Positions 2,537 to 6,202 of a DNA stretch of 64,000 bases are shown piece after piece. The stretch lies in the sequence record MT478991.1; one strand, given 5' to 3'. Both the position numbers and the translations under genes were made by a program. The stretch comes from Escherichia phage vB_EcoM_011D4. The first letter of the stretch is position 1; the number at the start of each line of letters is the position of its first letter. The notes beneath the pieces are model-generated. The model had not been told where the DNA came from, made no database searches, and saw only the letters and a list, made by a program, of their open reading frames with translations.

Positions 2537-3127
2537 TCAATAGCGTTTAGTCTTAAGAATGCCTTTACTCTTTAGATGGTTAGCCTTTTTTAGTACGTCA
2601 TCAGCATAACCTAATCCGGCTTTATAGTTCCATCCAGCATTGTAAGAAGCTAGCGCGAGTCGGATATTACCGTTTCGAACATCCAGCCAGTATGCTAACT
2701 CATCCATCGCGTAGAATGCAGAAACCTCGCGATTCATGATAAAGTTGATAGTCTGGCGATCACTCATTTTAACACCGCGCTTTGCATTTTTCGCTTTCAC
2801 CGTTTTAAGGTAATTTTGAAATAATCCATAAGCATGATGATTTTTCTTTGGTGCTAAGTTTGCACCCGCGCTTGATTCTTGCCATGCGATACCCGCCAGG
2901 ATGTGGCCTAAACCCTTTCCGTTATAGCGAATATTCGGATGGTACTTTTTCAACTTACCGCTTTTCTCAAATTGCTCGCCGTATTGATAGGCGAAATGTA
3001 AATTATCTAGTTGGTGTGCTGTAAAGTTGTCTATCGGCGCTTTTTTGATCGGTGCGCTAGTCGATGCGTGTGTAGCACCAACGGCTAGTGACAGACTCAA
3101 TACTATCGCTTTTAGAACTTTTAACAT
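2537..3127 (-). CDS. secreted lytic transglycosylase (SLT domain)
   Basis: 196 aa; signal peptide; SLT-type motifs AWQESS ... YGLFQ ... YNAG. Confidence 0.65.
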   Translation of the reverse strand: MLKVLKAIVLSLSLAVGATHASTSAPIKKAPIDNFTAHQLDNLHFAYQYGEQFEKSGKLKKYHPNIRYNGKGLGHILAGIAWQESSAGANLAPKKNHHAYGLFQNYLKTVKAKNAKRGVKMSDRQTINFIMNREVSAFYAMDELAYWLDVRNGNIRLALASYNAGWNYKAGLGYADDVLKKANHLKSKGILKTKRY

Positions 3128-3212
3128 TAATTTCTCCTGTTTGGCTTAACTTTCTGATTCCATAATATAGCCCTATCACCAGAAAGTCAAGCATTATTTT
3201 AACCAATTTCCA

Positions 3213-3635
3213 TTATTGGTCTACTTTCAAAACAACCGCCGACATTTTACCCGCCAGTCGTTTTGGATTCTCTATAATCATTCGGCAGCATAGACCGTGA
3301 TACGGCTTACCCTCTTCGATTAGATCTACTGTCATCCCGATCCACATGTTACCGTCAGTAATTTCTAATCGATTAGGTCTGTCTTCCATTTTCAGGAAGT
3401 CGAAGATCTCCGGCAAACGAGTTTCTATCTTATTGAATAGTTCCATTGTCTTATGTTCATCGATATGACGATCGGTTAGACGGTCGATCATATGCGGACT
3501 AAAGCGAATGAAAATATACTCACCATAACCATCATTCAAGCACTTTTCTTTGATCTGTGCATTGGTTTTGCGCATTTCGGTTTCGAAGAATCTACGCAGC
3601 TTACTACGGCGAACATGTACGTTAATTGTTTCCAT
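3213..3635 (-). CDS. hypothetical early protein (regB position by synteny; assignment tentative)
   Basis: ORF track gives 3213..3677; an internal Met (METINVHVRRSKLRR) preceded by AAGGA is the likelier start; size and position relative to tk resemble T4 regB but the sequence could not be verified. Confidence 0.4.
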   Translation of the reverse strand: METINVHVRRSKLRRFFETEMRKTNAQIKEKCLNDGYGEYIFIRFSPHMIDRLTDRHIDEHKTMELFNKIETRLPEIFDFLKMEDRPNRLEITDGNMWIGMTVDLIEEGKPYHGLCCRMIIENPKRLAGKMSAVVLKVDQ

Positions 3636-3639
3636 TTTA

Positions 3640-3975
3640 TTATCCTTTCTTAAACAAATTGCGAAGCCAGTATACAAACGGGATTTCTTTAAACTTGAAT
3701 TTCTCGATAGTTAATTCTTTAGTAGCAAGATGAATACCATAAGCATCATGTGTCACGATATGCCATTTTCTATAGTCCAAATGTGAACAACCGTCTGGAT
3801 CTAGGTTAATAAGAGTTTCTCGCTCACTAGGATTATTTTTCCACAATTTTGTAATAGGATCGCACATAATTCGACCTAGCGTACCATGAATAATCTCACA
3901 ACGGTAAAGTTTTCCAGCAGTGAGATAGGCGCACCCGTCATAGTCGGTATAAACAAACACTTCTTTAACACTCAT
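3640..3975 (-). CDS. hypothetical protein, member of tandem paralog family (DGCSHL motif)
   Basis: 111 aa; shares (D/G)GCSHL and aromatic-rich motifs with the next two ORFs; own early promoter upstream. Confidence 0.5.
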   Translation of the reverse strand: MSVKEVFVYTDYDGCAYLTAGKLYRCEIIHGTLGRIMCDPITKLWKNNPSERETLINLDPDGCSHLDYRKWHIVTHDAYGIHLATKELTIEKFKFKEIPFVYWLRNLFKKG

Positions 3976-4003
3976 TTTAATACTCCTTTGTTGTTTCGAT
4001 GGG

Positions 4004-4037
4004 GGTGTATATTACTACCCCCGTTTTGTTGTGTCAA
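4004..4037 (-). promoter_or_regulatory. early sigma70-type promoter with stem-loop (PeSL-like)
   Basis: minus strand reads TTGACA-17 nt-TAATAT; inverted repeat GGGGGT/ACCCCC spans the -10; followed by leader and AGGAG. Confidence 0.5.
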
Positions 4038-4298
4038 CTACTTTTTCAAGATTTTTTTGAGTGCATTCCAAAGACCTTTATTCTCAGGTTGTTTTGGTTC
4101 TTCGATCAGTGTCCACGGACGGTCGTCTAAGTATGCACAGCTTTTCAGAGAAATAAAAAGTTTATATCCTTGATCATCTTTGATGTAACCGTAGGTAGAC
4201 ATTCTTTCATCTGGCGTAAACTTATACAGTTTATTTGGGGTGATGTAAGATCTACTACTATAAGGTGTCATCACATACATCATGGTACTAACTCCCAT
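4038..4298 (-). CDS. hypothetical protein, tandem paralog family
   Basis: 86 aa; motif TPxKLYKFTP ... GYIxDD ... paralogous to 4280..4474. Confidence 0.45.
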   Translation of the reverse strand: MGVSTMMYVMTPYSSRSYITPNKLYKFTPDERMSTYGYIKDDQGYKLFISLKSCAYLDDRPWTLIEEPKQPENKGLWNALKKILKK

Positions 4299-4474
4299 TT
4301 ATCACCGCGAAGATGAGAACATCCACCATCAAGAAGGATCGTAATACGAAACCCCACATCATCTTCAATATACCCGATAGTCGGTGGATGTTCGTCGTCT
4401 CGTGCCGGGGTAAAATCATACATCTTTCCCGGTGTGATATCATTGCCTTTATTGCTATTGGTATAAACTTGCAT
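4280..4474 (-). CDS. hypothetical protein, tandem paralog family
   Basis: 64 aa; motifs TPGKMYDFTP, GYIEDD, GGCSHL shared with neighbours. Confidence 0.45.
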   Translation of the reverse strand: MQVYTNSNKGNDITPGKMYDFTPARDDEHPPTIGYIEDDVGFRITILLDGGCSHLRGDKWELVP

Positions 4475-4495
4475 TTTCTTAATCTCCTATATTAA

Positions 4496-5194
4496 CTAAC
4501 CACGGGTATAGTGTTCCAGAACAACTGTCAGATGAATATATTCTAATAGATCTTTCCAAAAGTCAACATCTGGTTCTTCCGGCATACCGTTTTTCTTTGC
4601 CTCTTCACGCGCGAGTTTAACACGCTCGTAGAGATCTTTCAATTCTTCCCGCACATTATCAAAGGTTCTTTCTCCTAACTTACACGCTAAAATAGAAGAA
4701 CGTCGCGCGAGCGGGAATTGTAGATCACCAGTTTGATAGATTTCAAGTAGCTGATAACCAACACGCAGAGCATGAGAAAGATCTTTCCAGTTACTGAAAT
4801 ACTTTTCAGATTTTGTTACCTGTTTCTTGAGATAACCAGACAAACCCCACATACCAACATGATAGAATTTATCGCGATGTGTTCGGATGTATTCCCATTC
4901 TCTGGAGGATTCAACCAACATGTTACTAGGCGCGTGCACCATGTCAATAGCGCCGATATCGCCTTTACATGCCAGATTGATAAACCGTTTTAGACTGAAC
5001 ATATTAACATCAATATCGTCTTTGGTGTTCTTGATACCTTGACCGCTAGTGCTTTGGTCATAGTGTTCTTTCATCGATCCTAAGATAATTTCTTTAGCAG
5101 TCGGAACAAAGATACCACGATAATCTTTATCTGAATTTTCAGTATCAAGGCCGTACAAGTGAGATCCGAAGACCATTTTAACCATTGTATGCAT
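4496..5194 (-). CDS. predicted nucleotidyltransferase (minimal pol-beta-like fold)
   Basis: 232 aa; N-terminal GSHLYGLDTENSDKDYRGIF matches the GS ... D.D nucleotidyltransferase motif. Confidence 0.5.
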   Translation of the reverse strand: MHTMVKMVFGSHLYGLDTENSDKDYRGIFVPTAKEIILGSMKEHYDQSTSGQGIKNTKDDIDVNMFSLKRFINLACKGDIGAIDMVHAPSNMLVESSREWEYIRTHRDKFYHVGMWGLSGYLKKQVTKSEKYFSNWKDLSHALRVGYQLLEIYQTGDLQFPLARRSSILACKLGERTFDNVREELKDLYERVKLAREEAKKNGMPEEPDVDFWKDLLEYIHLTVVLEHYTRG

Positions 5195-5207
5195 AATTAA
5201 ACCCTCA

Positions 5208-5738
5208 TTAGTATTTTACGTTACGTCGAACGCCTTTTCGAATCTGACAAATAGCAGACGGTGAAACATTATATTTTCTTGCAAGTTCTACACCCTTCAT
5301 ATGGGGAGAAGATAAAATCTCTTCCACTTGGTCGTCGGTAAGTTTTGCGTTTCCGTGGTTCTCTCCCCAATTGTTGTTTAATCCTTCTTCCTTCGCATGA
5401 ACAAGATTTCGGGTATCTGTCGTCCATTCAAGATTATAAAGGTCATAGTTTTGTTTGTTTCCATCCTTATGATTAACTACACGGTAGTTATTTGGATTCG
5501 GAATAAACGCAACCGCCATAGCTTTATGCATGTTCACGGTTTTTCTAAATCCATCCGGCTTATAACATACTGTAAATTTAGAATAACCAGTTTTACCATA
5601 AACACTAATATAATTTCCGGTCTCTGTATTTCTAACCCTACCATGAGAGCTAATCTCAAATTGAGTGTAGGGCAACAGCGCATCAATCACTTTCCATTCT
5701 TCGACAGGATGGTCATCACAATATCTTTTAATCATCAT
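5208..5738 (-). CDS. HNH homing endonuclease (NUMOD4 + HNH + C-terminal HTH)
   Basis: 176 aa; FEISSHGRVRN (NUMOD4-like), NHKDGNKQNYDLYNLEW (HNH), C-terminal ARKYNVSPSAICQIRKG HTH. Confidence 0.8.
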   Translation of the reverse strand: MMIKRYCDDHPVEEWKVIDALLPYTQFEISSHGRVRNTETGNYISVYGKTGYSKFTVCYKPDGFRKTVNMHKAMAVAFIPNPNNYRVVNHKDGNKQNYDLYNLEWTTDTRNLVHAKEEGLNNNWGENHGNAKLTDDQVEEILSSPHMKGVELARKYNVSPSAICQIRKGVRRNVKY

Positions 5739-5754
5739 ATCACCTCATAAAAAT

Positions 5755-5785
5755 AAAGCCAACCCTTTCGGATTGGCTTAAAAAA
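5755..5785 (-). terminator. hairpin terminator downstream of GrcA-like gene
   Basis: inverted repeat aagccaa / ttggctt followed on the minus strand by a U-run. Confidence 0.45.
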
Positions 5786-6202
5786 TTACATTGCTTCCGT
5801 AAAGGTGCGCGAAATAACGTCACGTTGTTGGTCTGGAGTCAGACTATTGAATCTTACGGCATATCCGCTAACGCGAATGGTTAGTTGCGGATACTTATCA
5901 GGATTAGCAACCGCATCAAGAAGAAGATCGCGACTCATCACATTGATATTCGCGTGCTGACCACCTTCGACAACCGGAGCACCATTATCTACAATGACAG
6001 GACGGAAGCTAGTTGTGTGTAGTGCCAGCGAATCGACGTCTTCTGCGGTGATCACATGGTCTTCTGCGAAAGTTTTACTAACAATTACTTTAGCGCCGAT
6101 CAGTGCTTTCGGTTCGGATACCAGAATCATAGGCGCGAAGTGTCCACCAATAATAGTACCTTTATGCTCACCTTTCATGATTTGAATTGCTTTAAATTCC
6201 AT
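5786..6202 (-). CDS. autonomous glycyl radical cofactor (GrcA/YfiD-like)
   Basis: 138 aa; C-terminus [32 protein letters not shown] carries the glycyl-radical signature RVSGYA and closely resembles E. coli GrcA as recalled. Confidence 0.8.

Follow-up and report, generated by a model that had tools for sequence, protein, structure and literature searches.

Three small genes lying in tandem between nrdC.11 and regB of an RB49-like phage are, as judged by pairwise and profile comparison, genuinely, if distantly, related. All three fall within a single large family of small phage proteins, for which an SH3-like beta-barrel of five strands is predicted, and most of their diversity appears to stem from the swapping of barrel cores as cassettes. 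We think that they are probably dispensable proteins that bind host or defence components. The genes come from Escherichia phage vB_EcoM_011D4 (MT478991.1), and the whole 64,000-nucleotide stretch analysed is referred to below as ‘the window’. The genome is of the Krischvirus (RB49-like, T4-type coliphage) kind, and the genes, termed here A, B and C, correspond by annotation to RB49p095, RB49p096 and RB49p097 of RB49. The open reading frames reported in the first-pass annotation (3640-3975, 4038-4298 and 4280-4474) are confirmed, and all of them lie on the minus strand. The direction of transcription makes A, at 3640-3975, the last gene of the array and not the ‘first copy’ that it had been called. 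The features of the locus, in the order in which they are transcribed, are as follows:

4496..5194, minus strand: nrdC.11 (RlaP-type nucleotidyltransferase), the upstream flank; Pfam RlaP, 2e-14, and annotation
4484..4487, minus strand: GGAG Shine-Dalgarno sequence of C (GGAGAUUAAGA), invariant in 19/19 genomes
4280..4474, minus strand: gene C, 64 aa, pI 4.6; opens the array, 21 nt 3' of nrdC.11
4038..4283 (longest ORF to 4298), minus strand: gene B, 81 aa from the ATG at 4283; allele class B1
4009..4037, minus strand: sigma-70-type promoter between B and A, TTGACA-17 nt-TAATAT; consensus scan, 10/12 matches
4001..4022, minus strand: G5/C5 hairpin with the -10 hexamer in its loop; RNA fold -14.1 kcal/mol, z=-2.5
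3976..3986, minus strand: GGAG Shine-Dalgarno sequence of A (GGAGUAUUAAA); putative RegB site, 9/11 consensus matches
3748..3975, minus strand: gene A, barrel part (residues 1-76), with an insertion of 10-17 aa relative to the family (CDPITKLWKNNPSERET)
3640..3747, minus strand: gene A, residues 77-111 (C-terminal extension) with the stop codon; ends FVYWLRNLFKK
3635..3645, minus strand: GGAUAAUAAAA, Shine-Dalgarno sequence of regB and RegB autoregulatory site; overlaps the last codon and stop codon of A (GGA UAA)
3213..3635, minus strand: regB endoribonuclease, flanking A downstream and co-oriented with it; Pfam REGB_T4, 1.7e-48, and annotation

The order nrdC.11-C-B-[promoter/hairpin]-A-regB is constant in every RB49-like phage examined. 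The array is present in 58/58 Krischvirus records; it is fixed in the genus, and the earlier description of the region as ‘hyperplastic’ does not apply there. One relative has two copies only. The arrangement RlaP-[barrels]-regB is retained in three diverged lineages. B most likely begins at the ATG at 4283 rather than at 4298: this start is annotated in the fetched records of 16/17 annotated relatives (as a 246-nt CDS), homologues begin MYVMTPY, and the ATG overlaps the stop codon of C as ATGA.

Tandem paralogy of the three genes, across a domain of ~60 aa, is borne out both by pairwise BLASTP (B versus C, 41% identity, E=1e-13; A versus B, E=4e-5; A versus C, E=2e-4) and by an HMM designed to avoid circularity, built from 94 family members, none of which reaches 45% identity to A, B or C. 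From the 971 six-frame ORFs of the window, this HMM retrieved only B (3e-24), C (1.4e-18) and A (3.6e-15); the best-scoring other ORF reached 0.88. Six-frame HMM scans with 3-sequence and 109-sequence profiles revealed no fourth copy in the 64 kb window. Homology is thus significant by an independent profile, but the motifs first quoted in its favor are each common to two of the proteins, not to all three. B and C share TP.K.Y.FTP and GYI.DD, and A and C share GCSHL, for which the window's B has SCAYL.

In profile searches A (1.1e-37), C (5.2e-29) and B (2.9e-5) match phrog_6261, and B also matches phrog_15978 (4.9e-43). Among 109 diverse family members, 101 match phrog_6261 and 94 match phrog_15978. 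On these overlapping matches PHROG 6261 and PHROG 15978, clusters to which A, B and C belong and which both lack a name, a fold and a function, are really one family. It comprises 905 cluster representatives (50% identity, E<=1e-3), most of them stand-alone proteins of 58-70 aa; elsewhere in the family the domain is present two to four times in one protein. A search of the phage database with the family consensus gave 156 matching records, far fewer than the 905 representatives. In the data searched here the family occurs only in phage genomes and phage-like contigs. Its distribution is patchy (Drexlerviridae, Vibrio and Pseudomonas phages), and the only Straboviridae among the records matching the consensus are the 58 Krischvirus records; IMG/VR yielded just one close contig. 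In the loci inspected, the neighbors of family members are always small hypothetical genes. One family member is fused to DUF3850. Another, P0080, has a weak Tad2-like C-terminal domain (E=7.8e-4, below the Pfam cutoff), and one family locus lies ~4 kb from an Acb2/Tad1-like gene. The family has neither a Pfam model nor a solved structure, and a sequence-profile search of the PDB gave nothing relevant. PADLOC returned no match, and Rfam, on both strands, returned nothing relevant. In the literature on RB49, Krischvirus and the PHROG identifiers we found no mention of these ORFs, nor any report of a binding partner, phenotype or expression for any family member.

The family consensus reads YLT.GK.Y ... 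I.DD.G ... CAHL.G..W. Across some 100 very divergent members the Tyr and Trp are invariant, and the Thr, Lys, Ile, Asp, Cys and His are more than 90% conserved. Of the motif set T.GK.Y / I.DD.G / C.HL / W, the residues T, K, Y, C, L and W are kept in A, B and C alike; the DD.G hairpin motif is missing from A, whose insertion falls at that place, and in the window's B the His is replaced by Tyr. The SH3-like fold is a prediction from modeling. The AF2 model of C (pLDDT 92.8) is a five-strand barrel with strands at residues 2-4, 18-22, 33-37, 43-47 and 61-63, and a 3-10 helix at 53-55 before the last strand; that of A has a barrel of pLDDT about 90. C is the minimal form, acidic and without a tail. 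B consists of a barrel core and a basic amphipathic C-terminal tail, LWNALKKILKK, and A ends in a basic amphipathic helix (residues 99-109, pLDDT 41-52).

Foldseek of the model against the PDB found no SH3-like match, and A, B and C have no match in Pfam at E<=1, including the SH3, Tudor, KOW and Sm families; a single stray, sub-threshold match to Tudor_5 (9.5e-4) occurs in 1/109 members. The ALYDY/WW/PxxY signature of canonical SH3 domains is missing from the family, which has T.GK.Y / DD.G / CxHL / W instead. Anti-defence Pfam models (Tad1/Tad2, Acb2 and others) are not matched by A, B or C. Gp54 of phage Bas11 (PDB 9AXB), a small beta-barrel, sets off the CapRelSJ46 defence (PMC11578894). 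It is not homologous to the present family: hhalign of the family profile against its Bas10 orthologue gave a probability of 2%, it has six strands versus the five predicted here, and it was not recovered by the family profile search of the PDB (E<=10). Bas10 carries the Gp54 orthologue and a family member as separate genes, bas10_0057 and bas10_0081. Two other candidates were set aside. DUF6501 is matched weakly by 5/109 members (best E=1.7e-3) and by none of A, B and C at E<=1, and being itself uncharacterized it adds no function. The resemblance to VOC/FosA/glyoxalase proteins is that of a local hairpin (‘LDPDG’): NCBIfam FosA scores are 13-19 bits against cutoffs of 180-305, over 21 residues, and the Foldseek alignment spans 29 columns at E about 1.

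Within the genus the array varies unevenly. Across 19 genomes mean dN is 0.078 for B and 0.048 for C, about 10-fold that of the neighbors (nrdC.11, regB and A, 0.003-0.008). To this extent the paralogs are ‘diversifying’, as first described; positive selection is unsupported, however, gene-wide dN/dS being 0.12-0.28 (about 0.25-0.28 for C), and A is nearly invariant. With gene-wide dN/dS below 0.3, an arms race is not demonstrated, and the near-invariance of A is as compatible with a conserved, housekeeping-like partner as with a target in such a race. B occurs in two allele classes that differ in core codons 9-58 at dN 0.25 and dS 1.8 (saturated), versus dS 0.2-0.3 in the flanks, and C varies mostly in two loops. 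In a sister lineage (L033) the barrel of A has been replaced: its nucleotide identity is 43%, versus 85-95% in the flanks, and the last 57 nt of A are still 95% identical. By these comparisons the variable modules are the barrel parts of the proteins, and the flanks and C-terminal tails are conserved. The ‘local triplication’ originally proposed for these genes finds no support. When 105 family members are ranked by similarity to A, B comes 52nd and C 60th, so that A is no closer to either than to the median member, and recent local triplication is rejected on this ranking. C, likewise, has closer relatives elsewhere than its array neighbors.

The region contains neither a late promoter (TATAAATA) nor a MotA-type promoter, and the array is predicted, from its sequence signals, to consist of T4-type early genes. 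The hexamers of the sigma-70-type promoter are invariant in the 19/19 relatives compared, though the spacer varies, and the record of phage GEC-3S lists it as a promoter. The stems of the overlapping hairpin are conserved in 19/19 genomes, in the sister lineage and in the two-copy relative (L031). No U-tract follows the hairpin on the coding strand; the G37-3 record carries an ARNOLD terminator call. The first-pass annotation assigned the ORF at 3640-3975 ‘its own early promoter’. A conserved sigma-70 promoter does lie just upstream of it, but this is better read as the A-regB promoter, because in the two-copy relative it is regB that comes directly after this promoter-hairpin module. A, for its part, directly abuts regB. 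The consensus of RegB sites is GGAGRAYARAA (PMC1702504), and the Shine-Dalgarno sequence of C, like that of A, is a putative RegB site, in partial match to this RegB/S1 consensus. The GGAU site of RB49 regB has been described (PMC3014915, PMC1702504).

The locus is, at present, a typical accessory gene cluster of a T4-type phage, with no function assigned. Its accessory character is indicated by the patchy distribution of the family, the small hypothetical neighbors, the two-copy relative, and a 14-nt frameshifting deletion in C of phage FL04. We infer a host-takeover or anti-defence role, as had been suggested initially. The proteins would be made early in infection as non-enzymatic binding modules, each barrel binding a host or anti-phage defence protein stoichiometrically; in A and B the basic amphipathic tail would serve as an anchor, either to the membrane or to a constant partner. 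Diversity would arise from the swapping of barrel cassettes with a large, phage-carried pool and not from recent local triplication, and expression would probably end once RegB cut the GGAG ribosome-binding sites of C and A. Taken as a whole, this explanation (early, non-enzymatic host or defence binders with exchanged barrel cassettes, shut off by RegB) is a tentative one to which we give somewhat less than an even chance. A more specific version, in which the barrel of this SH3-like cassette family is an exchangeable module of specificity, recombined between conserved flanks, and the proteins are anti-defence factors or defence-sensed triggers, limited by RegB within the Krischvirus regB early operon, we consider unlikely.

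Could the proteins instead be RNA-linked accessory factors, barrels of the Sm, KOW or Tudor type that modulate early mRNA processing, on the RNA itself or with RegB, S1 or NrdC.11? The synteny of RlaP, barrels and regB in three diverged lineages speaks for this, as do the position of A just 5' of regB, the predicted promoter that they share, the RegB site of regB on the stop codon of A, and the DUF3850 fusion. Full-length A (pI 8.3) and B (pI 9.3) are also basic, but their barrel cores are near neutral and the positive charge resides in the tails. C has a pI of 4.6, and acidic members prevail in the family (median pI 4.9, median net charge -4), which counts against nucleic-acid binding. Family genes of Bas10, Vibrio phage helene and Pseudomonas phage KIL3 have no annotated regB or RlaP nearby, and Pfam, NCBIfam and PDB sequences yield no above-threshold match to an RNA-binding domain. 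We regard an RNA-linked function as improbable.

The tails raise another alternative: they may tether A and B to the inner membrane, where these proteins would function in superinfection exclusion or regulate lysis, cell division or the envelope. The hydrophobic moment is 0.65 for FVYWLRNLFKK of A and 0.75 for LWNALKKILKK of B; the same calculation gives 0.78 for a peptide that we take to be the membrane-targeting helix of E. coli FtsA. The family member P0032 has an amphipathic tail (muH 0.71), the second array gene of the two-copy lineage has a basic tail, amphipathic by eye, and replacement of the barrel has left the tail of A at 95% nucleotide identity. This last conservation may, however, belong to the regulatory RNA or DNA of regB, its translation-initiation and RegB sites, rather than to protein function. 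Most family members, C included, have no tail, the tail helix of A is of low confidence, and signal peptides and transmembrane segments are absent. A membrane-directed role, too, has a low probability in our estimation.

Rather than simply determining the turns of the fold, the near-invariant Cys, His, Lys, Thr, Tyr and Trp might make up a conserved ligand pocket. In this third alternative, a pocket of Thr/Lys/Tyr and Cys-x-His/Trp would sequester a metal or an immune signaling nucleotide, in a sponge-like form of anti-defence. Conservation above 90% at six positions over members so divergent would be unusual for a pure scaffold; the Tad2-like domain of P0080, the locus near the Acb2/Tad1-like gene, and the tandem and fused multi-copy forms point the same way. 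But Ser naturally takes the place of Cys in 9/109 members, and an aromatic residue (Tyr, Phe or Trp) that of His in 8/109, the window's B among them, which disfavors a catalytic or metal-binding Cys-x-His site. The conserved residues, moreover, fall at predicted turns (T.GK, DD.G and the 3-10 helix), as fold determinants would, no similarity to known sponge families is found in Pfam or PADLOC, and the VOC/FosA-like match is a sub-threshold one. We judge small-ligand binding to be improbable. The suspicion that the resemblance is due to chance, or that the ORFs are non-coding shadows, draws on their shortness and on motifs each present in just two of the proteins, and has next to no probability: it is refuted by the independent-profile E-values and by purifying selection on these frames across 19 genomes, and opposed also by the conserved Shine-Dalgarno sequences, the start/stop coupling and the confident AF2 fold.

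If the inferred host-takeover or anti-defence role is true, the family represents a sizeable, untapped set of small binders of host or defence targets (~900 clusters at 50% identity), and if the cassette-binder reading holds, a new and widespread class of counter-defence or trigger proteins. Merging PHROG 6261 and 15978 as one SH3-like family would improve the annotation of many coliphages and Klebsiella, Vibrio and Pseudomonas phages. The Krischvirus array itself would be a convenient natural experiment: it offers three diverged copies within a single operon, together with two old B alleles, a natural knockout of C and, in the sister lineage, an A gene whose barrel has been replaced. A natural C/B chimera, P0009, also occurs.

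Along the direction of transcription, the genes of this region are vs.6, an HNH homing endonuclease, nrdC.11, C, B, A, regB and vs.1. The window belongs to a Krischvirus, an RB49-like T4-type coliphage, and the array formed by the small genes A, B and C is fixed across the genus. The 2.3-kb stretch around it is matched in 58 phage records at 94-98% identity, and carries every one of its genes on the minus strand. The first-pass annotation had located the three-gene feature correctly. The principal genes are:

5208-5738, minus strand: HNH homing endonuclease, between vs.6 and nrdC.11
4496-5194, minus strand: nrdC.11, RlaP-type nucleotidyltransferase
4280-4474, minus strand: C, 64 aa
4038-4283 or 4298, minus strand: B, 81 or 86 aa
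3640-3975, minus strand: A, 111 aa
3213-3635, minus strand: regB, annotated and conserved start at ATG 3635

B probably starts at ATG 4283, within an ATGA overlap with the stop codon of C, since 16/17 annotated relatives' records agree on this start and homologues begin MYVMTPY. In a mechanical ORF list, regB runs upstream to TTG 3677, into gene A (3213-3677, minus strand). The RB49 counterparts of A, B and C are RB49p095, RB49p096 and RB49p097; nearly every record labels these genes 'hypothetical protein', and a few mislabel A as an endoribonuclease.

The similarity claimed for the three genes is real. BLASTP aligns B with C at 41% identity (E=1e-13), A with B at E=4e-5 and A with C at E=2e-4. 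A non-circular HMM, for which we took 94 family members with <45% identity to A, B or C, finds these three as its sole matches among 971 six-frame ORFs of the window (3e-24 for B, 1.4e-18 for C and 3.6e-15 for A). The best ORF after these scores 0.88, and a search for a fourth copy across the 64 kb found none. The motifs said to be shared are distributed unevenly: TP.K.Y.FTP and GYI.DD occur in B and C, and GCSHL in A and C, where B of the window has SCAYL; none is common to all three.

A, B and C are new members of a family that is already catalogued, and uncharacterized. Pfam and NCBIfam return nothing for them; in PHROGs, A and C fall in phrog_6261 and B in phrog_15978, both catalogued without function. 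The two entries represent one family, since most of the 109 members that we aligned match both (101 match phrog_6261 and 94 match phrog_15978). No Pfam entry covers the family, and DUF6501 is matched weakly by 5/109. The consensus is M.V.T....YLT.GK.Y...(variable)...I.DD.G....I....CAHL.G..W..V., in which Tyr and Trp are invariant, and Thr, Lys, Ile, Asp, Cys and His exceed 90%. A word-indexed search recovered few relatives; an exhaustive profile search at E<=1e-3 recovered representatives of 905 clusters, of which almost all are stand-alone proteins of 58-70 aa. A tblastn search of GenBank phages with the consensus places the family in 156 records, comprising 58 Krischvirus, Drexlerviridae (e.g. 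Bas10, bas10_0081, and Klebsiella K50 phages), ~136 kb Vibrio phages, Pseudomonas Flaumdravirus and a few others; no Straboviridae beyond Krischvirus are among them. Small hypothetical genes surround the family gene at every locus whose context was examined, and in two of these nucleotide-metabolism or replication genes adjoin it as well. All source-given names are 'hypothetical', and a search of the literature turned up no experiments on any member.

Some members are composite. P0024, P0040, P0028, P0030 and P0094 contain two to four barrels, and others are fused to DUF3850, to a sub-threshold Tad2-like domain or to two other, unnamed phage modules. Recurrent fused phage modules without a Pfam model occur in P0122, P0123, P0130, P0073, P0076 and P0144, and also in P0047 and P0156; one bears the motif PKTWGEMTDAEKGALLLAHHEG...YRIKPEP, and another a C-terminal ...AMAALTGLL...YADAMLEARK motif. 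In Bas10, bas10_0082 (L004 2686-3159), bas10_0050 (L006 7665-8030) and bas10_0043 (L006 3846-4016) match the N-terminal and central parts of the profile (T.GK.Y through I.DD.G) weakly, at E 1e-3 to 8e-3, and may be remoter Drexlerviridae relatives besides the clear member, bas10_0081.

Local triplication, proposed at first pass, does not describe this array. When 105 family members are ranked by similarity to A, B comes 52nd and C 60th, so that A has no special kinship with either; B and C stand between 8th and 12th in each other's rankings. We reject recent local triplication. In a more distant metagenomic lineage (L033/L034), the order RlaP-C-B-A-regB is kept, with 85-90% identity in nrdC.11 and regB; the A barrel is 43% identical in nucleotides, and the last 57 nt of A 95%. 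Copy number differs between lineages, for L031, more distant still, has two copies only, with the promoter-hairpin module discussed below directly 5' of regB. In L031/L032 (metagenomic T4-like contigs), the two barrel genes are flanked by regB and by a longer RlaP (327 aa), and the second has a basic tail, amphipathic by eye. The lineage comparisons and the similarity ranking point to an old array, built or refreshed from a wide pool.

Variation within the array is concentrated in the barrels. Across the window and 18 related genomes, Nei-Gojobori dN/dS and mean dN are 0.03 and 0.003 in nrdC.11, 0.05 and 0.005 in regB, 0.12 and 0.008 in A, 0.19-0.28 and 0.078 in B, and 0.25-0.28 and 0.048 in C, so that protein-level change in B and C is about ten times faster. 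The genes had been called diversifying; this holds for the rate in B and C, and does not extend to gene-wide positive selection, dN/dS being <=0.28. B falls into two allele classes: B1 is carried by this window, E26, Brandy, GoldenSnicker and JK32, and B2 by RB49, Phi1, JSE and others. Between the classes, dN is 0.25 and dS a saturated 1.8 in the barrel core (codons 9-58), and dS is 0.2-0.3 at both ends. The split is an old cassette-like replacement. P0009 (ENA metagenome, 83 aa) joins the N-terminal half of C to the C-terminal half of B, including the B tail, which points to recombination between paralogs. P0021 (111 aa), the first 28 residues of A followed by an MraZ-like protein (PF02381), is probably an assembly chimera. 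In FL04 (L021, PP358550.1, ~1501-1681), C has a 14-nt frameshifting deletion, the sole disrupted copy in the 19 genomes; it reflects a natural knockout or else an error in sequencing.

The AlphaFold2 model of C (pLDDT 92.8) has five strands, with a 3-10 helix preceding the last, and its predicted fold is of SH3 topology. Among C orthologues, 4/9 positions vary in the n-Src-equivalent loop, 4/4 in the loop before the 3-10 helix, and 1/13 in the almost invariant RT-loop equivalent. In the model of A, the barrel is confident, the insertion at residues 41-50 poorly modelled, and the C-terminal extension, with its terminal helix at 99-109, of low confidence. The family is typically acidic (median pI 4.9, median net charge -4), as is C (pI 4.6). 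The barrels of A and B are near-neutral, and their C-terminal tails are basic and strongly amphipathic (FVYWLRNLFKK, muH 0.65, in A; LWNALKKILKK, muH 0.75, in B). By the same calculation, a peptide that we take to be the membrane-targeting helix of E. coli FtsA gives 0.78. Gp54(Bas11), 66 aa long and dispensable, triggers CapRelSJ46 defence (PMC11578894). We reject it as a homologue: its Bas10 orthologue, bas10_0057, matches the family profile with 2% probability, and it is thus a fold-level analogue rather than a relative.

C starts 21 nt after nrdC.11, with a GGAG Shine-Dalgarno, and the ATGA overlap couples B to C. The 62-nt B-A spacer contains the predicted promoter that had been noted ahead of A, TTGACA-17-TAATAT (4037-4009, minus strand), and a G5/C5 hairpin (4001-4022, minus strand; -14.1 kcal/mol, z=-2.5) whose loop holds the -10 hexamer. 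In 19/19 genomes the two hexamers and the two stems are unchanged, and the spacer between them varies. Neither a late promoter (TATAAATA) nor a MotA-box promoter is present in 3100-5800. Depositors label the site a promoter in GEC-3S and a terminator in G37-3; in the plus-strand orientation a T-run comes after the hairpin, which then scores as a terminator. The arrangement recurs at 4001-4037 (minus strand) in the window, 4444-4480 in L031 and 4436-4472 in L033, surviving in three lineages despite diverged or replaced flanking genes. The hairpin could stabilize the 3' end of the C-B transcript, serve as a processing site or modulate the promoter. Gene A ends (last codon and stop, GGA UAA) inside GGAUAAUAAAA (3635-3645, minus strand), which for RB49 regB is known both as the Shine-Dalgarno and as an unusual RegB site, GGAU (PMC3014915, PMC1702504). 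Cutting at this autoregulatory site would strip the stop codon from A's mRNA. The site reads GGAG in JK32, Brandy and GoldenSnicker, whose A proteins have one extra residue. Upstream of A (GGAGUAUUAAA) and C (GGAGAUUAAGA), the Shine-Dalgarno regions are similar to the RegB/S1 consensus, GGAGRAYARAA, and are candidate RegB sites.

We tentatively favour, at somewhat short of an even chance, a reading in which A, B and C act early in infection as dispensable, non-enzymatic binding proteins. Their barrels would recognize proteins of the host or of defence systems; A and B would be tethered by their tails to the membrane or a constant partner, and RegB would contribute to turning expression off. 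A role as membrane-directed exclusion or lysis modulators overlaps this reading, and is by itself unlikely. A function linked to RNA or RegB is suggested by synteny and by the position of A, directly ahead of regB under a shared predicted promoter; it is improbable, however, for a family that is acidic and has no annotated regB nearby in the examined Bas10, Vibrio and Pseudomonas phage regions. The binding of a small ligand or metal through a conserved pocket is likewise unlikely. The conserved Cys is Ser in 9/109 members, and the His is Tyr, Phe or Trp in 8/109, the window's B included; these natural substitutions, and the location of the residues at predicted turns, make a structural role likelier than catalysis or metal binding. 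Chance similarity, or ORFs that are non-coding, is refuted. Judged against T4-type accessory regions the array is ordinary, and its interest lies in family breadth and cassette-like variation, above the triplication itself.

Upstream of the array, the HNH/NUMOD4 homing-endonuclease gene (5208-5738, minus strand) is present in JSE, Whisky and phiS (100% query coverage), and missing from RB49, Phi1 and GEC-3S among others (96% query coverage). A different, 594-nt HNH gene occupies the nrdC.11/vs.6 site in JK32, G37-3 and FL04, and the junction looks like a polymorphic homing site.
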